Shown one piece after another: positions 34,372 to 43,396 of a DNA stretch of 64,000 bases. The translations under genes were made by a program, and so were the position numbers. The stretch is taken from NCBI GenBank assembly GCA_963816145.1, contig CAWFJP010000014.1, positions 608,001 through 672,000 of the forward strand. The letters run 5' to 3'. The DNA is from an uncultured delta proteobacterium. Lineage in GTDB: Bacteria > Desulfobacterota > Binatia > UBA9968. Positions within the stretch are counted from its first letter, which is position 1. Every line of letters begins with the position of its first letter. The notes under the pieces were generated by a model, which was not told the DNA's origin, did no database searches, and was given only the letters and a program-made list of their open reading frames with translations.

Positions 34372-35118
34372 ATGTCCGGCCATTCAAAGTGGAGCACGAT
34401 CAAGCACAAGAAAGCCGCTAAGGACGCCAAGCGTGGCAAGATTTTCACCAAGTTGATTAAGGAAATCACCGTCGCGGCGCGCATGGGCGGCGGCGATATC
34501 AATGCCAATCCGCGACTGCGCACGGCGGTTCTGACCGCCCGCAGCAACAGCATGCCGAGTGAAAACATCGACCGGGCGATCAAAAAAGGCACCGGTGAAT
34601 TGGAAGGCGTAACCTACGAGGAGATTCAGTACGAAGGTTACGGTCCGGGCGGCGTGGCGATCATCGCGCAGGTGCTGACCGACAACAAAAATCGCACGGT
34701 GTCGGAGATCCGCCGGATGTTTGCCAAGCATGGCGGTAATATGGGTGAGACCGGCTGCGTCGGCTGGATGTTCGACAAGAAGGGCATTCTCACCGTCGAC
34801 AAATCTCAGGTAGACGAGGACCGCTTGATGGATATCGCGCTCGATGCCGGCGCCGAAGATGTCCGGGACGAGGGGGAGGTCTTTGAAGTGGTGACCCAGC
34901 CCGAGGACTTTGAAAAAGTCAAAGAACGGCTGGATCAGGAAAAAATCGCCATCGCCAGCGGCCAGGTCAGTCTGGTGCCGAAAAACACCGTCGATGTCGA
35001 CGCTAAAAATGTCGAGCAAGTATTGAAGCTCAGCGAAGAGCTTGAAGATCATGACGACGTGCAGAATGTCGCGGCCAATTTCAATATCCCCGATGAACTG
35101 ATGGACAAGGCGAATTAG
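34372..35118 (+). CDS. yebC: YebC/PmpR family protein
   Basis: [39 protein letters not shown]. Confidence 0.97.
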
Positions 35119-35123
35119 CCCCT

Positions 35124-35693
35124 GTGGCGGACCCTGGCAACAAAGCGCTGCCGCGAATCATCCTGGGCATCGATCCAGGAACCATGGCGACCGGCTGGGG
35201 GGTCGTTCAAGTCATCGGTAACGCGCTGCGCCATATGGGCCATGGCACAATCCATTCTTCAAGCGCCGAGCCCCAAGCGCGCCGCCTGTGCCGGATCTAC
35301 ACCGAACTGTCGAAAGTTGTAAAAGAGTTTCAGCCGGATGGCGTCAGCCTGGAAAAAGTCTTCTTCGCACAGAATGTTCAAAGCGCGCTCAAGCTCGGCC
35401 AGGCGCGCGGCGTCGCGCTGCTCGCGGCCGCTGAACAAGCTGTCGAAGTTCACGAATATAGCGCGGTAGAAATCAAGTCGGCGGTGGTGGGCTACGGCCA
35501 TGCGACCAAGCAGCAAGTGCAAATGATGATCGGATCGTTATTGAAAGTTTCCGGGCCGGTGCCGGCGGATGCTGCGGACGCGCTGGCGGCGGCGATCTGC
35601 CATCTCAACCGACAGGCGTTCGCCAGCCGGGTTGCCGAGGCGATGCCCAAAGCTCCGACTCCGATTCGGCCGCGCGGCAGCGGCGGGCGTTGA
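35124..35693 (+). CDS. ruvC: Holliday junction resolvase
   Basis: ILGIDPG, E..FF, LGQARG, VGYGHATK, DAADALA.A.CH. Confidence 0.95.
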   Translation: MADPGNKALPRIILGIDPGTMATGWGVVQVIGNALRHMGHGTIHSSSAEPQARRLCRIYTELSKVVKEFQPDGVSLEKVFFAQNVQSALKLGQARGVALLAAAEQAVEVHEYSAVEIKSAVVGYGHATKQQVQMMIGSLLKVSGPVPADAADALAAAICHLNRQAFASRVAEAMPKAPTPIRPRGSGGR

Positions 35694-35746
35694 GCGGCCG
35701 ATGCAAGTATTATTGATGCCCCGCTCGGGGACGATTGAAATCTTCC

Positions 35747-35935
35747 GCCCCTTCGCTATGACTCGGGCATCGCTTCAGACGAAAAGTGGATTCGTCATGC
35801 CGGCGAACGCCGGCATCCATCTTGATTCTCATCACGTGACAAAAACGAGCATGGATTCCGGCTTGCGCCGGAATGACGGGTCAAAACTCTCACTTCAAGT
35901 CGGCGCCGGCCCAATCCCGCGACTTCGAGCCGAGG
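35747..35935. repeat. MITE-like block with an internal GTCATGCCGGC...CCGGAATGAC palindrome between ruvC and ruvA
   Basis: CGTCATGCCGGCGAACGCCGGCATCCA...TGGATTCCGGCTTGCGCCGGAATGACG; imperfect outer IR. Confidence 0.65.
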
Positions 35936-35963
35936 GTTGGTTAACTCGGTTGCAGGGCTCGAC

Positions 35964-36560
35964 GTGATCGCACAAATCAGCGGCAAGCTCGCGCAAAAAC
36001 AGCCCGGCGAAGTGGTCATCGACGTCGGCGGCGTCGGCTATCTGGTTCTGATACCGCTCAATGTTTTTTACCATTTGCCGGACATCGGCGCGCCGATGAG
36101 TTTGCAGATTCACACTCATGTGCGCGAGGACGCATTGCAGCTATTCGGCTTTCATGACCTCGCCGAAAAGCAGGTGTTTTTGTTGCTCATGGGTGTATCC
36201 GGTATCGGTCCCAAGTTGGCGCTCAATATTTTGTCCGGTATCCCGGCGGGAGAATTGGCGCGGGCCTTGAGAAACGGCGACCAGATGCGCTTGGTGTCGA
36301 TTCCCGGCGTCGGCAAGAAGTTGGCCGAGCGGATGATCGTCGAGTTGAAGGACAAGTTCACCAACCTGGCGCCGGTGACCATCGATAGCGCGGCCAAACC
36401 TGAGGCTTCGTCGCAAAAGATGCAGGACGCGGTTTCCGCCTTGATCAATCTAGGGTATAAAAAGCCGGAGATCGAAAAAACCGTCCGCGACGTGCTCAAG
36501 AACGGCGAGCTGTCGCTGGAAGATGTTCTGCGCGAAACCTTGCGGCAAATGGGGCATTAG
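35964..36560 (+). CDS. ruvA: Holliday junction branch migration protein RuvA
   Basis: GTG start; DVGGVGY, VREDALQLFGF, VSGIGPK, IPGVGKKLAER. Confidence 0.95.
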   Translation: MIAQISGKLAQKQPGEVVIDVGGVGYLVLIPLNVFYHLPDIGAPMSLQIHTHVREDALQLFGFHDLAEKQVFLLLMGVSGIGPKLALNILSGIPAGELARALRNGDQMRLVSIPGVGKKLAERMIVELKDKFTNLAPVTIDSAAKPEASSQKMQDAVSALINLGYKKPEIEKTVRDVLKNGELSLEDVLRETLRQMGH

Positions 36561-36680
36561 GCCACAAGAGTTTTGGCCTCAGAGGGCACGGAGATCACAG
36601 CATCCCCCACCTTCATCCTCCCCCGCTTGCGGGGAACGAAAGAGAAGGTGGGGGGGATTAACCGCAAAGGGCGCCAAAAA
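36560..36680. repeat. Mixed REP-like repeat between ruvA and ruvB
   Basis: CCCCCACCTTC..CCTCCCCCGCTTGCGGGGAA..GAAGGTGGGGG plus CGCAAAGGGCGCCAA. Confidence 0.6.
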
Positions 36681-36743
36681 GATTTCCGAAGCGGGCGGGT
36701 TTAAACCTGCCCGCATGGGTTGTAAGAAGATCACACACTGGCC

Positions 36744-37772
<1,029 letters not shown>

Positions 37773-37806
37773 AGCCGTTTGGCGGTATAATTATCGGATG
37801 AGGATC

Positions 37807-38019
37807 ATGGGCGGATTGGGCAAGACGCTAATCTCTTTCGGTATTGTGCTTGTGATCGTCGGAATACTGGTATCGTTGTCCGACAAGTTGCCGTGGCTCG
37901 GCCACCTGCCGGGGGATATCCATATCCAACGAGGACGCTTCAACTTCTATTTTCCGCTGACCACCTGCATTGTCGTCAGTGTGGTAATTTCGCTTGTCGC
38001 TTACTTATTCAAACGTTAG
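37807..38019 (+). CDS. DUF2905 small membrane protein
   Basis: WLGHLPGDI....F.FYFPLTTCI; usual neighbour of ruvB. Confidence 0.85.
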   Translation: MGGLGKTLISFGIVLVIVGILVSLSDKLPWLGHLPGDIHIQRGRFNFYFPLTTCIVVSVVISLVAYLFKR

Positions 38020-38058: not shown

Positions 38059-40269
38059 ATGGAACCCCAAAAACTAACCCCTAGCCACGAAGCGAGCATC
38101 AAAGCCGAAGAGGCCAAAAGGCGCAAGCGCGAGGGCATCGTCATCGCGGTGGCGGCGCTGATGGTGGCGGCGTTGATCTTCTTCGAAGTACAGTCGCCGG
38201 ACATTTCTCTGGAGAATTCGCTCGGCAGCAACATCATTTTTTTCTTTATTATCAATATCAATATCATTCTGCTGGTGCTGCTGGTGTTTCTGGTGATGCG
38301 CAATCTGGTCAAGCTGGTCTTCGAACGGCGGCGCCGGATGCTCGGCTCGCGCTTGCAGTCGCGCCTGGTCTTAGCTTTCGTCGCCCTGTCGATCGTGCCG
38401 AGTCTGTTACTGTTCGCCATTGCCGGCGGCCTTTTGACCCGTTCCTTCGACCGCTGGTTTGACGCCAAGGTGGAAAGCGCGCTCCAGGGCTCCTTGGAAA
38501 TCGGTCAAACCTATTACCAAAACTCGGCCAACAACGCGATGTTTTTCGCCCGCCGGTTGAGCGAGAAGATCACTGAAGATAAACTCTTCGAGCCGGCGCG
38601 GCGGGTCGATCTGCGCCGGCTGGTCGAGGAAAAACAGCGCGACTATAACCTCGGTACCGTGGAGGTCTACTCAGCGGACGGTACCGCCATTGTTGCGGTG
38701 AGCGACAAGTCGAAGAGCGGCATAGACTTGAAGCCCGACGGGGAATTCTTGGCGCGCGCGTTGCGCGGCGTCGGCGTGACTTGGACCCAGCCGCTGGGCG
38801 AAGGCGATGTGATTCGCGGCGGCGCGCCGATCTTTGGCGCCGAGAAGCGCATCGTCGGCGTCGCGGTGGTCGACTATCATGTGCCCAAGAGTTTGACCAA
38901 CCGGGCGAAGCAAATTTCGGAATCCTACGAGCAATACAAGTACTTAACCTTTCTTAAGGCGCCGGTTAAGAACAGCTACATCTTGACGCTGTTTCTGATC
39001 ACTCTGGTAATCATGTTTTCCGCGACCTGGTGGGGTTTTTATCTTTCCAAGGGCATTACCGTGCCAATCCAAAAACTCGCCGAGGGGACTCATGAGGTCG
39101 CCCAGGGCAATTGGGACTATAAAATTGAAACCAGCGGCGACGATGAGATCGGTGTCTTGGTCCAGTCGTTCAATCAGATGACGGGCGACTTAAAGCAAAT
39201 AACCCTGGAGCTCGAACGGCGCGGCAAGGTGGTCCAAACCTTACTCGCCAATATCGCCGCGGGCGTGGTTTCGGTGGATCCGGCGGAAAAGATAACTACG
39301 TGGAATAAGGCCGCCGAACAGATGCTCGGGGTCAAATCCGAGCAGGCGTTGGCGAAGAATTACCGCGAGGTCTTGCAGCCGGAACACTTGCGCGTGGTCG
39401 CCGAGATCATCGATAGCGTCAAGGATCGGGAAAAGATCGAGCGTGAGATCAAGATCCCGCAGCATGAGCAGCTACTGACGGCGGTGGTGACGGCGGCGAC
39501 CCTGCGCGACGACGACGGCTCGGCGCTGGGAGTCATGGTTTTTCTCGAAGACATTACGCAAATCCAAAAAGTGCAGCGCATGGAGGCCTGGCGCGAAGTG
39601 GCGCGGCGCATAGCCCATGAGATCAAGAATCCCCTGACGCCGATCCAGCTATCGGCCGAGCGGCTGCGCAAACGCTACGCCAGTATGCTCGGCGGCGACG
39701 GCGGCATCTTGGACAAATGCACGACGACGATCATACAGCAGGTCGAAGAACTCAAGAGCCTGGTCAACGAGTTCTCCCAGTTCGCCCGGCTACCGTCAGC
39801 GAAGCTGGCAACTCAGGACCTCAATGAAATCGTCAATGAAGCGCTTTTTCTTTTCAATGAGGCACACAAAGGTATACAATTTCGTTTCCAGCCCGGAGTG
39901 ATTCCGACGTTGGATTTGGACCGCGATCAGATCAAGCGGGTGCTGATCAATCTGCTCGACAACGCTGTGGCGGCGGTGCAAAATGATGGCGAGATCAGGC
40001 TCTCGACGCATTACAATCGGGGGCGCGGCGTGGTGACGTTGGATGTCGCCGATAACGGCAGCGGTTTGGCGCCGGAGATGCGCACGAAAATATTCGAACC
40101 GTATTTTTCGACCAAGGAAAACGGCACCGGCTTGGGGCTGACCATCGTCAGTCAAATCATCGAGGATCATCGCGGCTATATCCGGGCGTTGCCCAACGAG
40201 CCCAAGGGGACGCGGTTTAGCATTGAATTTCCCGCTTCAGAGGTTGCCAAACGAGCGGCGCATTCGTAA
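38059..40269 (+). CDS. NtrY-type membrane sensor histidine kinase (TM, periplasmic, HAMP, PAS, HisKA, HATPase)
   Basis: AWREVARRIAHEIKNPLTPIQLSAER H-box, NLLDNA, DNGSG, FEPYFSTK..GTGLGL, HAMP DDEIGVLVQSFNQM. Confidence 0.93.
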   Translation: MEPQKLTPSHEASIKAEEAKRRKREGIVIAVAALMVAALIFFEVQSPDISLENSLGSNIIFFFIININIILLVLLVFLVMRNLVKLVFERRRRMLGSRLQSRLVLAFVALSIVPSLLLFAIAGGLLTRSFDRWFDAKVESALQGSLEIGQTYYQNSANNAMFFARRLSEKITEDKLFEPARRVDLRRLVEEKQRDYNLGTVEVYSADGTAIVAVSDKSKSGIDLKPDGEFLARALRGVGVTWTQPLGEGDVIRGGAPIFGAEKRIVGVAVVDYHVPKSLTNRAKQISESYEQYKYLTFLKAPVKNSYILTLFLITLVIMFSATWWGFYLSKGITVPIQKLAEGTHEVAQGNWDYKIETSGDDEIGVLVQSFNQMTGDLKQITLELERRGKVVQTLLANIAAGVVSVDPAEKITTWNKAAEQMLGVKSEQALAKNYREVLQPEHLRVVAEIIDSVKDREKIEREIKIPQHEQLLTAVVTAATLRDDDGSALGVMVFLEDITQIQKVQRMEAWREVARRIAHEIKNPLTPIQLSAERLRKRYASMLGGDGGILDKCTTTIIQQVEELKSLVNEFSQFARLPSAKLATQDLNEIVNEALFLFNEAHKGIQFRFQPGVIPTLDLDRDQIKRVLINLLDNAVAAVQNDGEIRLSTHYNRGRGVVTLDVADNGSGLAPEMRTKIFEPYFSTKENGTGLGLTIVSQIIEDHRGYIRALPNEPKGTRFSIEFPASEVAKRAAHS

Positions 40270-40281
40270 CTTGGAGGTCGG

Positions 40282-41568
40282 GTGGAAGAGCTGGCGGTTA
40301 ACAAAACTATCTTAGTTGTCGACGACGAAGACGACGTGCGCGAGTCGGTGCGCGAAGTGCTGCGCGACGAAGGTTACCGCGTCGTCGATACCGCCGACGG
40401 CACCCATGTGCTCGAATTGATCCGTCAGGAACGGCCCGAGTTGGTTTTGCTCGATATCTGGATGCCCCAAGTCGACGGCATCGGTTTGCTCAAGGAAATC
40501 AAGACTCAGGAGCCAGAGCTCAATGTCGTCATGGTGTCCGGCCATGGCAATATTCATACGGCGGTGACCGCGACCAAATTCGGCGCCTTTGATTTTCTCG
40601 AGAAGCCGGTTTCTCTAGAGGGCCTTCTATTAACCGTGCAGCGGGCCTTGGGCGAATCGTCGAGTTCGGCGGCCCAGCACAGCCGTGCCAAGAGTAAAGC
40701 CGGTGCGGCTAAGCGCGGTGCGGCGCCTGCGACGGCGACCCGAATCAAGCAAAAGACTTTAAAAAAAAGCGTCGTCTTGTCCGGCCAAGGGCTGCATTCG
40801 GGAGTGAAGACCGGATTGATCCTGCATCCGTTGCCGCCCAACAGCGGCATTCGTTTCACCGGCATTTCCGGCGAAGTGGCGGTGCCTGCGCACTTGGATT
40901 ATGTCGGCTCGACCGGCTATGCAACTTCATTGCGCACGCAAGGTTTCGCCGTCGGCACTGTCGAGCATTTGCTCGCCGTCCTGCACAGCTATGGGATTGG
41001 CAATCTGCTCATCAAAGTTCACGGTGAGGTGCCGATCCTCGACGGCTCGGCGCTGGAATTTTGCCAAGCCATCGATGAAGCGGGCATTCAGCTGGAAGAC
41101 GAGGAAGTCGCCGAGATCGTCATCAACCGCGCTTATCGGGTCGAAGCCAAGGGAGGCGAGTCCATCGCCATCGAACCGGCGGACGGTTTCTCGGTGCATT
41201 ACGAACTGCGTTATCCCAATCCAGTGGGCGAACAACAATACTTGTATCGTCACCACGGCGCCGAATCGTTTCGCGAGGAGATCGCACCGGCTCGGACCTT
41301 TGGCTTTCTCAAGGACATCGCCAAGCTTCAGACCATGGGGCTGGCCAACGGCGGACGGCTGAGTAATTTTATCTTGATCGACGACGAGAAGATTGTGAAC
41401 ACCGAGTTGCGCTTCGCCGACGAATTGGCGCGCCACAAGATTCTCGATATTCTCGGCGACTTCTATTTGCTCGGCAGACCGCTTCGCGGTGCGATCCGCG
41501 CGCGCATGACCGGCCACTCGGACAATATCGCGCTGTTGCGCAAGGTCCGCGAAGGCATGAAGCTGTGA
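40282..41568 (+). CDS. lpxC: Fusion: NtrX-type receiver domain plus UDP-3-O-acyl-GlcNAc deacetylase LpxC
   Basis: REC: ILVVDDE, LLDIWMP, SGHG, FLEKP. LpxC: QKTLK...GQGLHSG, TVEHLL, PILDGSA, IAPARTFGF, RHKILD..GD, GH. Confidence 0.92.
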   Translation: MEELAVNKTILVVDDEDDVRESVREVLRDEGYRVVDTADGTHVLELIRQERPELVLLDIWMPQVDGIGLLKEIKTQEPELNVVMVSGHGNIHTAVTATKFGAFDFLEKPVSLEGLLLTVQRALGESSSSAAQHSRAKSKAGAAKRGAAPATATRIKQKTLKKSVVLSGQGLHSGVKTGLILHPLPPNSGIRFTGISGEVAVPAHLDYVGSTGYATSLRTQGFAVGTVEHLLAVLHSYGIGNLLIKVHGEVPILDGSALEFCQAIDEAGIQLEDEEVAEIVINRAYRVEAKGGESIAIEPADGFSVHYELRYPNPVGEQQYLYRHHGAESFREEIAPARTFGFLKDIAKLQTMGLANGGRLSNFILIDDEKIVNTELRFADELARHKILDILGDFYLLGRPLRGAIRARMTGHSDNIALLRKVREGMKL

Positions 41569-41625
41569 CGGTCACTGAGCCGTGGATGATTGCTCGGCCC
41601 TCTGAGATTTTGCAGGACGCCTGAA

Positions 41626-42069
41626 ATGGACGCCAATTTTCCCCGACTGTTCACGGTTAACGAAGCCAACGGACTCTTGCCGATGTTACGGCCGCTGGTC
41701 GAGCAAATCCTGGAAAACATCCGGCGCTTGAAGGGTGTTAGCGAAACCGTGATCCGGCGCGAGCAACTTGACCCCGATGCGCCCAATCTGATGGAACGCT
41801 TGCGCGAGGACAAAGAGGTCTTGAAGCTGGTGACGCAAATCAAGGACTGGGTCGAGGCGATCAATGGCCATGGCTGCGTGTGCAAGGGCGTCGAACAGGG
41901 ATTGATCGATTTCCCGTGCATGCTCGGTTCCGAAGTGGTATTTCTCTGCTGGCAGATCGGCGAAGCCAACGTGGCGCACTATCATCGCATCGAAGACGGC
42001 TTCGCCGGGCGCAAGACTTTGCTCGACGATGGGAGCGCGGAGCCGGATAGTAAGATCTCCTATCACTGA
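41626..42069 (+). CDS. DUF2203 family protein
   Basis: FTVNEANGLLP, K....GLIDFP, VFLCW..GE....YH....GFAGR. Confidence 0.85.
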   Translation: MDANFPRLFTVNEANGLLPMLRPLVEQILENIRRLKGVSETVIRREQLDPDAPNLMERLREDKEVLKLVTQIKDWVEAINGHGCVCKGVEQGLIDFPCMLGSEVVFLCWQIGEANVAHYHRIEDGFAGRKTLLDDGSAEPDSKISYH

Positions 42070-42229: not shown

Positions 42230-43396
42230 ATGAAATCCGCTCCCGACGCTGCACCTGAAATTCTTTCCACCAAGATCAAAGCCGCAGCGCAGCAATTGGG
42301 TTTCGATCTGGTCGGTATTTCACCGGTTCGGCTGCCGCCCCATGGCGAATCCTTCGCACGCTGGCTACGCGACGGCTTTGCCGGCGAGCTGGGTTACATG
42401 GGCCGGACGAAAGCGCTGCGCCGTGATCCTAATGAGCTCGTGCCTTGGGCGCAGTCGATTATTTCCGTCGGCATGAATTACTACACGCCCTACGCACGGT
42501 CTCAGAATCCAGCGGCCGCTGAAGGTTGGATTTCCCGCTACGCCTGGGGTTATGACTACCATGAACTCATCAAGGCGCGACTGGAGCAGTTGCTCGAAAC
42601 CATTCGAACTCTGTGCGACGGGAAAATCGAAGGGCGTGCCTTCGTCGATTCCGGCCCAGTGTTGGAACGAGACTTCGCCGGCGTCGCCGGCCTCGGTTGG
42701 ATCGGCAAGAACACCCATTTGATTTCGCCGCAACGGGGATCATGGTTTTTTTTGGGCGAACTGTTCGTCGATCTGCCACTGGCGCACGACCGGCCGATGC
42801 GTGACCGCTGCGGCCAATGCGACTTGTGTCTCAAAGCGTGCCCGACCAGCGCGTTTGCCGGACCTTATATTCTCGATGCGCGCCGCTGTATTTCTTATTT
42901 AACGATCGAACTCAAAGGCGCCATGCCGCGCCATCTGCGGTCGCTTGTGGGCAACCATATATTTGGCTGTGATATCTGCCAGGAAGTTTGCCCGTACAAT
43001 GTCAAATCGCAGGCAACGGCGGAGGCGGCGTTCGGGCCGCGCCCAGGCCTGTTCGCGCCGCAATTGATTCCTCTTCTATCATTGACCGACGCCGCGTTCC
43101 GCCAACGCTTCCGCGGCAGCCCGATCTTGCGCGCCAAACGGCGCGGCTTCTTGCGAAATGTCGCCGTGGCTTTGGGTAATTTGAAATCTCTGGAAGCCGT
43201 GCCGGCGTTGATTGCTTCGCTTGACGATGCAGAACCGTTAGTCCGTGGCCACGCAGGTTGGGCCTTGGGCGAGATCGGTTCGCAGGCCGCGGTCGAAGCG
43301 TTGCAGCGTCGTTTGCAGGTTGAAACCGACGACGAGGCGCGCGTGGAGATCGACGCAGCAATAAATCAGTTGCGCAAAGCCAGTGGGGAAGCGTAG
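42230..43396 (+). CDS. queG: tRNA epoxyqueuosine reductase
   Basis: ISRYAWG.DYH, VDSGPVLER, GWIGKN, CGQCDLCLKACPT, CISYLTIE, GCDICQEVCP, HEAT tail. Confidence 0.95.
   Translation: MKSAPDAAPEILSTKIKAAAQQLGFDLVGISPVRLPPHGESFARWLRDGFAGELGYMGRTKALRRDPNELVPWAQSIISVGMNYYTPYARSQNPAAAEGWISRYAWGYDYHELIKARLEQLLETIRTLCDGKIEGRAFVDSGPVLERDFAGVAGLGWIGKNTHLISPQRGSWFFLGELFVDLPLAHDRPMRDRCGQCDLCLKACPTSAFAGPYILDARRCISYLTIELKGAMPRHLRSLVGNHIFGCDICQEVCPYNVKSQATAEAAFGPRPGLFAPQLIPLLSLTDAAFRQRFRGSPILRAKRRGFLRNVAVALGNLKSLEAVPALIASLDDAEPLVRGHAGWALGEIGSQAAVEALQRRLQVETDDEARVEIDAAINQLRKASGEA

Follow-up and report, generated by a model that had tools for sequence, protein, structure and literature searches.

A response-regulator receiver fused to LpxC and encoded next to a sensor kinase in Binatia: a candidate for direct two-component control of lipid A synthesis

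Introduction

In lipid A synthesis, the committed, rate-controlling reaction is that of LpxC, an enzyme which is also a major target for antibiotics. It is known to be controlled by regulated proteolysis in E. coli and by transcription in a few species. The E. coli proteolysis uses a C-terminal degradation tail, which LpxC requires for its degradation by FtsH, and a membrane protease complex. As known from work on the enzymes of E. coli and A. aeolicus, the Zn ligands of LpxC are His, His, and Asp, and the catalytic residues are Glu, His, Thr, Lys, and Asp. Response regulators with an enzyme as output include CheB, whose active site is blocked by the unphosphorylated receiver until phosphorylation releases it, the REC-GGDEF proteins PleD and WspR, and the REC-HD-GYP protein RpfG.

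The fused protein described here resembles CheB in its N-terminal receiver with full phospho-chemistry, its flexible linker, its C-terminal hydrolase, and the location of its gene beside that of a kinase. It differs from CheB, PleD, WspR, and RpfG in that its output, LpxC, is an essential biosynthetic enzyme and not a signaling enzyme. Neither a paper presenting LpxC as the output of a response regulator nor a description of a receiver-LpxC fusion was found in the literature searched, supplements and most subscription journals being outside its scope.

The proteolytic control of E. coli LpxC by FtsH, LapB, and YejM is treated in PMC6339880; unlike that enzyme, the fused clade lacks a degradation tail and carries a phospho-receiver instead. 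At the transcriptional level, PMC3333781 gives lpxC as the single target of the D. vulgaris sigma-54 regulator DVU2934 and places lpxC immediately 5' of the orthologous operon in S. fumaroxidans. The pair DVU2931 (kinase)/DVU2934 is an lpxC-dedicated two-component system, and the S. fumaroxidans gene order matches that of the unfused relatives below, a likeness in target and gene order. This pair acts on transcription through a separate DNA-binding regulator, whereas in the present locus the receiver lies inside the enzyme, AAA+ and HTH domains being gone. In two further reports, an enrichment of sigma-54 promoters ahead of LpxC genes is described for Myxococcia (PMC12316311), and lpxC mRNA increases 8.8-fold when R. 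sphaeroides lacks NtrYX, an effect that the authors of the latter report consider indirect (PMC7240162).

Results

The Locus

The window, that is, the whole 64,000-nt stretch of DNA analyzed, corresponds to positions 608,001 to 672,000 (forward strand) of contig CAWFJP010000014.1 in assembly GCA_963816145.1, from an uncultured soil/wetland bacterium, a delta proteobacterium (Desulfobacterota; Binatia; UBA9968). The genome is ~99-99.5% complete and has lpxA (two copies) and lpxB. The gene pair occupies window positions 38059-41568. The first-pass annotation of this DNA had described a kinase ORF followed after 12 nt by an ORF of 428 aa, and the ORF listing recovered exactly these coordinates:

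38059..40269, + strand: sensor histidine kinase gene, 736 aa (ORF, translation, Pfam)
40270..40281, + strand: spacer of 12 nt from the kinase stop codon to the GTG start of the fusion (sequence)
40282..41568, + strand: REC-LpxC fusion gene, 428 aa, GTG start (ORF, Pfam, NCBIfam)
40309..40638, + strand: receiver domain, residues 10-119 (Pfam Response_reg)
40648..40740, + strand: linker, residues 123-153 (column identity, AlphaFold2)
40750..41547, + strand: LpxC domain, residues 157-422 (Pfam, TIGR00325)
41590..42069, + strand: DUF2203 gene (Pfam PF09969, 2.3e-32)

A GGAGG ribosome-binding site is found in the sequence inside the spacer (40273-40277).

Distribution of the Fusion

The receiver-LpxC fusion is confirmed as real. 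Both PF00072 and PF03331 are carried by all of the best 120 protein clusters (120/120), which come from several sources; 34 of the 41 related genomes encode the fusion in full length, and a fused form occurs in 76 of the 301 genomes sampled from the phylum. The junction at about 40640-40750 is crossed by two independent contigs from metagenome runs, one (X1) covering 40198-40949 and the other (X2) covering 39800-41700 with 12 substitutions and 0 gaps. In addition, a contig of an RNA library covers 40605-40755, including the linker region, with no differences. The RNA libraries (X15 and X17) yielded contigs of 151-206 nt only; these place the sequence in an RNA library and are no evidence for a transcript, for its ends, or for co-transcription. 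An artefact of assembly or reading frame that joins two separate genes has practically no chance of being the explanation, being refuted by the uninterrupted ORF, the same architecture in the best clusters and the relatives, and the gapless spanning contigs.

The first-pass annotation had called for a search for this architecture, for DNA across the junction, for kinase synteny among relatives, and for a second stand-alone lpxC or ntrX. These computational checks, including those presented below, were all favorable, and its reading is supported.

The Sensor Kinase

The kinase contains four hydrophobic stretches, a loop of ~180 aa separating the last two, and its membrane region is followed by HAMP, PAS, HisKA (H-box AHEIKNPL), and HATPase_c domains in Pfam. 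NtrY_N scores 32.7 bits, its cut-off being 23.2, and matches only 154 of the 291 profile positions (7-160); sCache_3_2 remains under its Pfam cut-off with 23.6 bits. The best 25 NCBIfam matches of the kinase all stay under their cut-offs, and NtrY is not among their names. The protein resembles alphaproteobacterial NtrY in its multi-pass N-terminus matching NtrY_N and in its HAMP, PAS, HisKA, and HATPase_c domains. The label NtrY/NtrX refers to this architecture and is not a family assignment, since the unfused orthologue of the receiver carries GAFTGA and belongs to the canonical sigma-54 activators.

This kinase is the sole full-length copy in the genome. The synteny expected from the first annotation extends to the relatives: with enough flank present, the kinase gene immediately precedes the fusion gene at 47 of 57 REC-LpxC and 13 of 15 REC-AAA-LpxC loci, the remaining 10/57 and 2/15 having no adjoining kinase. 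Where it is unlinked, a single full-length kinase orthologue is located elsewhere in the genome (4/4 tested), and in three genomes its neighbors are unrelated (DctM, NAD kinase, ParB-like protein, and others). With the sensor half as query, a kinase orthologue was found in 276 of the 301 genomes of the phylum, with fused or unfused LpxC alike, and the phyletic pattern of the kinase thus does not discriminate coupling.

The Receiver and the Linker

Response_reg (PF00072) matches residues 10-119 (1.6e-31, 109.2 bits), and the receiver has the acidic pocket D14 and D15, the phospho-acceptor D58 (40453-40455), S86, and K108. A receiver with all functional residues had been proposed, and every motif named (VVDDEDD, LLDIWMPQ, SGHG, and EKP) is present in the translation. 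D14, D15, D58, S/T86, and K108 are invariant in 60/60 REC-LpxC and 17/17 REC-AAA-LpxC proteins (S or T at position 86), a set that reaches down to 41% overall identity. The most conserved noncatalytic parts of the receiver are alpha4 and beta5, with mean identities of 0.84 and 0.94, respectively.

The nearest solved structures of the receiver are those of NtrX proteins, namely the Brucella NtrX receiver 4d6x (7.4e-31) and NtrX 5m7n. Unlike NtrX, the protein has no DNA-binding output, and it scores 140.8 bits on the NtrX equivalog NF051870, whose cut-off is 600, matching profile positions 3-157 of 452 only. The term "NtrX-like" holds for the structural relationship, but the unfused orthologue with its GAFTGA motif is a canonical sigma-54 activator. 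The expected AAA+ and HTH output is indeed missing, as neither was found by Pfam in the 428-aa ORF.

A linker rich in Ser, Ala, and Lys, as first described, connects the receiver to LpxC at residues ~123-153 of the translation. Its mean column identity is 0.28, its length in relatives varies from 21 to 65 aa, and AlphaFold2 gives a pLDDT <50 for residues 127-148; it is predicted to be disordered and unconserved. A linker so variable in sequence and length cannot carry a fixed allosteric signal, which counts against the control mechanism proposed below.

The LpxC Domain

The annotation of a complete LpxC with Zn ligands and catalytic residues is borne out by PF03331 at residues 157-422 (8.4e-82, 275.1 bits, profile positions 1-266 of 268) and by the TIGR00325 lpxC equivalog, which scores 246.4 bits, above its cut-off of 187.25. 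The residues E228 and H229 (TVEH), T339, F340, H385, K386, and D389 (HKILD), D393, and H412 are present, together with a TGH motif, and the motifs line up with their counterparts in P. aeruginosa LpxC structures. Zn-binding and catalytic residues are invariant in 60/60 REC-LpxC (T339 in 59/60) and 17/17 REC-AAA-LpxC proteins. The alignments indicate that both halves of the fusion are under purifying selection.

A second stand-alone lpxC was not found in the ~99%-complete genome, in which the fusion is the only LpxC match; the protein is the putative housekeeping deacetylase of the Raetz pathway. As for a stand-alone ntrX, no regulator resembling NtrX and bearing a weak AAA+ domain was detected in the genome. 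Its 34 strong sigma-54 activators are all canonical (218-254 bits), and the receiver next best to that of the fusion has 42% identity (85 bits).

The Unfused Operon and the Origin of the Fusion

Three architectures occur among the relatives: the unfused form, a long fusion (REC-AAA+-HTH remnant-LpxC), and the short fusion of the window (REC-LpxC). In the unfused form, a sigma-54 promoter precedes lpxC, which is followed by the kinase gene and then by the gene of a canonical sigma-54 activator. In the eight unfused loci examined, which were picked because their coordinates already suggested linkage, lpxC is followed by the kinase in 8/8 and next by the REC-AAA-HTH regulator in 6/8. By a count made by eye, 11 of ~32 stand-alone genomes with both genes listed have them linked on one strand. 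A sigma-54 -24/-12 element is located 36-96 nt 5' of lpxC in 8/8 unfused loci, against a background of 24 matches in 121,726 nt; at fused loci, such elements 5' of the kinase are at chance level (5/47 and 1/11). As promoter, lpxC, kinase, and activator share one operon, its two-component system would set lpxC transcription.

The unfused regulators have GAFTGA in 5/6 cases and GSFTGA in one, an intact Walker B, Sigma54_activat scores of 235-247 bits, and HTH_8. Searched against the genome of the window, their receivers match best at the fusion, with 53-57% identity and 128-136 bits; no other paralogue there exceeds 99 bits. In the long fusions, Sigma54_activat reaches only 60-97 bits, neither the GAFTGA loop nor the Walker B Asp-Glu pair is visible in the 17 aligned REC-AAA-LpxC proteins, and a regular expression for GAFTGA has no match in 5 of the 17. 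HTH_8 was not found in two segments at E up to 1, and the segment is named an HTH remnant solely for its alignment with the HTH_8 of the unfused regulators.

In a tree with 17 stand-alone LpxCs, the fused LpxC domains group as a single clade, with support of 100/99, and of 99 in a separate analysis. REC-LpxC proteins are a single clade in 0/200 bootstrap trees, with the well-supported branches forcing at most one change; the tree is compatible with one loss of AAA+ or with several. The ancestor would have been the operon of sigma-54 promoter, lpxC, kinase, and sigma-54 activator, still found in many relatives. The regulator would then have been fused to LpxC in one ancestor, after which AAA+ and HTH may have decayed, as in the long forms, and been deleted in lineages like that of the window, leaving REC-linker-LpxC.

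Discussion

Since LpxC is fused to a receiver and encoded right after a kinase, lipid A synthesis is probably under direct phosphorylation control. On the gene arrangement and the conserved residues, we consider it likely that two-component transcriptional control of lpxC has been replaced by direct phospho-control of the enzyme, in a two-gene signaling unit with the sole LpxC as its output. In this mechanism, a membrane kinase would be translationally linked to a hybrid response regulator with LpxC output and would phosphorylate D58 of the receiver. The phosphorylated receiver would alter the LpxC output at the protein level via its alpha4-beta5-alpha5 face, the most likely routes being docking to or release of the catalytic domain, as in CheB, or dimerization. 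As the ancestral regulator is an activator, phosphorylation would probably raise lipid A synthesis, and this phospho-control would take the place of both sigma-54 control and the E. coli-type proteolysis through the C-terminal tail; the lack of such a tail in the fused LpxCs, detailed below, fits this reading. For the clade as a whole, the balance is slightly in favor of a replacement of sigma-54 control of lpxC by a phospho-switch on LpxC, in which the extracytoplasmic loop of the kinase would read an envelope signal and set lipid A flux within seconds. The unfused, REC-AAA+-LpxC, and REC-LpxC forms would then be successive stages of a regulator absorbed by its target.

The AlphaFold2 model of the fusion has a mean pLDDT of 88.5 and a pTM of 0.86. 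By our own reasoning, this pTM exceeds what two freely placed domains would give, and hints at a fixed mutual arrangement of receiver and LpxC. A complex prediction of receiver 1-126 with LpxC 150-428 (alignments of 50 rows each) scored 0.00 against a mark of 0.32, which counts neither way on docking.

It is rather unlikely that the receiver sets the lifetime of LpxC and not its activity, phosphorylation exposing or hiding the fusion for FtsH, Lon, or ClpXP. Receivers of the RssB and CpdR types are a precedent for receiver-controlled proteolysis, and such control would directly replace the tail-dependent proteolysis of E. coli LpxC. The C-terminal region is consistent with it: the protein of the window ends 6 residues past the LpxC domain and the medians are 2 (REC-LpxC) and 6 (REC-AAA-LpxC), whereas most stand-alone LpxCs of the phylum (14/16) keep tails of 21-49 residues. 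The disordered linker, moreover, could be a start site for a protease. However, this linker has no conserved motif and no protease or adaptor gene is conserved beside the fusion. A genome search for Zn_ribbon_LapB (PF18073) gave one match, in an open frame of 107 aa, which is uninformative because the same search also matches Gram-positive control genomes.

The receiver as a leftover of the regulator, that is, a folding, dimerization, or localization module through which no signal passes, is an improbable explanation. It would fit with the decay and disappearance of AAA+ and HTH of the same ancestral regulator and with the kinase linkage lost at 10 of the 57 REC-LpxC loci. Against this, the five phospho-chemistry residues stayed invariant in 77/77 proteins while the neighboring parts decayed, and the single kinase orthologue is kept even where it is unlinked.

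A reverse flow of information, in which substrate or product occupancy of LpxC alters (de)phosphorylation of the receiver, the latter serving the kinase and another, unlinked regulator as a phosphate sink or feedback sensor, is highly improbable. The kinase might have further targets, as its orthologue is near-universal in the phylum, but the genome has no second close receiver, all its strong sigma-54 activators are canonical, and nothing in the data calls for such a reading.

If direct phospho-control of LpxC is true, the built-in receiver would be a third mode of LpxC control, and a two-component signal would act directly on a core enzyme of envelope biosynthesis. The family forms an unusually complete natural series of a transcription factor fused to the product of its target gene and then stripped down, and the evolution of regulatory rewiring is therefore directly testable. 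Being small and soluble, the fused proteins should lend themselves to in vitro assays of phosphorylation and activity and to complementation in standard laboratory strains.

The DUF2203 gene starts 21 nt 3' of the fusion gene on the same strand. At the closer REC-LpxC loci it is also downstream and on the same strand, and at the distant ones no such gene was detected; it may be a member of the operon in close relatives.

The Kinase and the Fused Gene

The genes of the locus are arranged in the window as follows:

37699-38019, DUF2905 small membrane-protein gene, just upstream of the kinase
38059-40269, + strand, sensor histidine kinase, 736 aa
40282-41568, + strand, REC-LpxC fusion, 428 aa, GTG start
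41590-42069, same strand as the fusion, DUF2203 gene, 21 nt past the fusion

The kinase ends at 40269 and the next start is at 40282, which agrees with the 12-bp gap reported in the first-pass annotation. This 12-nt spacer contains GGAGG at 40273-40277, with the start codon four bases further on. Pfam domains of the kinase are NtrY_N, HAMP, PAS, HisKA, and HATPase_c, the NtrY_N match (32.7 bits, cut-off 23.2) not extending beyond the first half of its profile. Four hydrophobic stretches were recognized by eye on the translation, with a loop of ~180 residues between the third and the fourth. In the fusion, residues 10-119 match Response_reg (1.6e-31) and residues 157-422 match LpxC (8.4e-82). 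The protein passes the curated lpxC equivalog TIGR00325 (246.4 vs 187.25 bits), and all the receiver and LpxC motifs named in the first-pass annotation are present in its translation. GC content is continuous throughout the region.

Upstream of the kinase are yebC, ruvC, ruvA, ruvB, and the DUF2905 gene, and downstream of the fusion are the DUF2203 gene and queG. These flanking genes are ordinary (yebC/ruvC/ruvA/ruvB within 34372-37772; queG, epoxyqueuosine reductase, within 42230-43396). A DUF2905 homologue is also located ~2.3 kb before the fusion start in loci L021, L049, L062, L078, and L100. The DUF2203 gene lies downstream in the closer REC-LpxC loci (~69% identity or more), and none was detected in the distant loci; possibly it belongs to the operon in certain lineages only.

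The LpxC of the Genome

A second lpxC, which the first-pass annotation had proposed to look for, was not found: the genome (7.8 Mb, 31 contigs, 99.5% complete) contains a single LpxC match, that is, the fusion ORF. lpxB and two lpxA genes are present, each above cut-off. Judged from this gene content, the fusion is probably the housekeeping LpxC of the genome. The lpxA genes are placed at G000:C18:38731-39492 and C11:202617-203372 (345 and 312 bits, above the TIGR01852 cut-off), and on contig C18 one of them shares a cluster with lpxB and a gene resembling lpxD.

The junction, where an assembly fault had been considered, is crossed by contigs of independent metagenomes. The contig of a wetland run aligns gap-free to 39800-41700, with 12 substitutions, and that of a second run spans 40198-40949. 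In addition, an RNA library yielded a contig of 151 nt identical to 40605-40755, a stretch that includes the entire linker; this indicates presence in that library and is not proof of transcription.

Distribution of the Fusion

The best 120 protein clusters in a large database (75-99% identity) all have both Pfam domains, the architecture that the first-pass annotation had proposed to search for. Among 41 related genomes (own genome included), 34 showed a match from residue ≤10 to ≥423 of the query, the unpublished genome G005 being one of them. In six others the matches are cut by contig ends or split across contigs, and G019 (91% complete) gave no LpxC-bearing match with the fusion query.

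Table. Matches to the fusion among 301 genomes sampled from the phylum (E ≤1e-40; counted by hand from the match table)
Full-length match (including one truncated at a contig end and one interrupted by an in-frame TAA): 41/301
Match on the LpxC part only, 51-62% identity: 35/301
Weaker match only, 37-45% identity, in stand-alone-size frames: 193/301
No match: 32/301

The genomes matching on the LpxC part only have open frames of two sizes. Ten of the 35 have frames of 450-497 aa, and the two that were checked are REC-LpxC with long linkers. The remaining 25 have frames of 554-837 aa; four of these proteins (705-795 aa) were checked and contain Response_reg, Sigma54_activat, AAA_lid_14, and LpxC, that is, a long fusion (REC-AAA-LpxC). 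A further 79 loci, mostly from records labelled Candidatus Binatia, "delta proteobacterium," or Thermodesulfobacteriota, came from a pattern scan covering one genome per species.

A few loci deviate. The full-length match with one in-frame TAA (G237:C6:235991-237283) comes from a genome with withheld bases and may reflect a pseudogene, an error in sequencing, or masking. Genome G074 carries two lpxC loci: in L131 (contig C33) a stand-alone lpxC precedes the kinase and no regulator was detected beyond them, and L023 (contig C11) is a very divergent REC-LpxC with 41% identity and a long branch. The pair may reflect an intermediate stage or the presence of a second copy. L103 and L104, from records labelled Flavobacteriales and Dysgonamonadaceae, are ORFs with an N-terminal LpxC (464 and 463 aa) and are probably the known bifunctional LpxC-FabZ.

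Linkage to the Kinase

In most fused loci, a full-length kinase orthologue, with an alignment starting in the N-terminal sensor part, is located directly upstream on the same strand. The synteny for which the first-pass annotation had proposed a test was found in 47/57 REC-LpxC loci (those with ≥2.3 kb upstream) and in 13/15 REC-AAA-LpxC loci. Four genomes without this linkage have exactly one full-length kinase orthologue elsewhere (35-47% identity), amid unrelated genes. In L125 (G145:C17), from a genome with the kinase unlinked from the fusion, a DUF4390 gene (616-1212) stands directly before the kinase.

The genome of the window has one full-length copy of such a kinase. As to a separate ntrX, which had also been proposed for a check, no regulator with a weak AAA+ domain was found in this genome; each of its 34 sigma-54 activators scores 218-254 bits, and the matches that follow score ≤30 bits. 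The kinase gene and the receiver-enzyme gene form a tight unit.

Unfused Relatives and Origin of the Fusion

The sensor half of the kinase has one orthologue in 276/301 genomes, including those with a stand-alone LpxC, and in several of the latter, judging by the listed coordinates, lpxC lies immediately before the kinase. Eight unfused loci were selected for exactly this position, and in 8/8 the kinase comes after lpxC in the same orientation. In 6/8, a REC-AAA-HTH regulator of 455-459 aa comes after the kinase, with GAFTGA in 5/6, GSFTGA in 1/6, and an intact Walker B in 6/6. Two of these proteins were tested and gave Sigma54_activat scores of 235-247 bits with HTH_8 above cut-off. By these motifs, the unfused regulator is a canonical sigma-54 activator.

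A -24/-12 element (TGGCAC-N5-TTGC, 8-10 of 10 positions) is located 36-96 nt before lpxC in 8/8 unfused loci (in one locus, the distance was measured from the start of LpxC homology), against a background of 24 matches in 121,726 nt of these loci. Before the kinase of fused loci it occurs in 5/47 and 1/11, which is the chance rate. lpxC is the sole mapped target of a sigma-54 regulator in D. vulgaris and adjoins the orthologous operon in S. fumaroxidans (PMC3333781). An enrichment of sigma-54 promoters before LpxC genes is described for Myxococcia (PMC12316311).

The receivers of three unfused regulators find the fusion as their best match in the genome (53-57% identity, 128-136 bits; next paralogue ≤99 bits). 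In REC-AAA-LpxC, Walker A is kept, GAFTGA and the Asp-Glu pair of Walker B are lost, and the AAA+ core has deletions. A segment alignable to the HTH of the unfused regulator is found in 15/17, and the two such segments tested gave no HTH_8 match. L096 and L019 (one from a record labelled Nitrospinota) are REC-AAA-LpxC without this segment and look like a further step of reduction.

In the LpxC-domain trees, all fused forms compose one clade as opposed to 17 stand-alone sequences, with a support of 99 in the quick tree (97 rows) and 100/99 in the careful tree (66 rows; close relatives, L083, and five truncated rows removed). The careful tree supports no particular order of REC-LpxC and REC-AAA-LpxC within this clade. 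We take REC-AAA-LpxC to be the earlier form, from which REC-LpxC arose, possibly on more than one occasion, because deleting an internal segment is a far simpler event than inserting AAA+ and HTH exactly, and because one REC-LpxC group (L063) retains a helical, regulator-like linker start.

Conservation and Proposed Control of LpxC

Conservation was examined in 60 REC-LpxC (59 loci and the window) and 17 REC-AAA-LpxC proteins, duplicates being kept (L015 and L083 are one contig). Receiver residues D14, D15, D58, and K108, and Ser/Thr at 86, are invariant in both forms. So are E228, H229, F340, H385, K386, D389, D393, and H412 of LpxC in the 77 proteins; position 339 is Thr in 76 and Ser in one. 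The linker, 21-65 residues long, has no conserved motif. The alignments show the receiver and LpxC halves to be under strong purifying selection, the transcription-factor parts between them having decayed. Outside the active site, the best-conserved receiver elements are alpha4 (0.84) and beta5 (0.94), a region that receivers commonly use as their output face.

Enzymes are a known type of response-regulator output, and LpxC is known to be regulated by proteolysis or transcription. A description of a receiver-LpxC fusion was not found in the searchable literature (main texts, mostly outside subscription journals). From comparison only, we infer that the kinase would phosphorylate D58 of the receiver and that the phosphorylated receiver would alter LpxC output at the protein level, probably raising it, because the ancestor was an activator.

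The AlphaFold2 model (50-row alignment) has a mean pLDDT of 88.5 and a pTM of 0.86, disorder being confined to residues 1-4 and 127-148. By our reasoning, two domains placed freely should not reach such a pTM, which hints at a defined receiver-LpxC contact, in which the fusion would resemble CheB.

Control of LpxC stability by the receiver is an alternative kept alive by the C-terminus. The median length beyond the homology is 2 residues in fused LpxCs of the REC-LpxC form (n=61) and 6 in those of the REC-AAA-LpxC form (n=17), and 14/16 stand-alone LpxCs of the phylum extend 21-49 residues past it. This loss of the tail fits a replacement of tail-dependent proteolysis.
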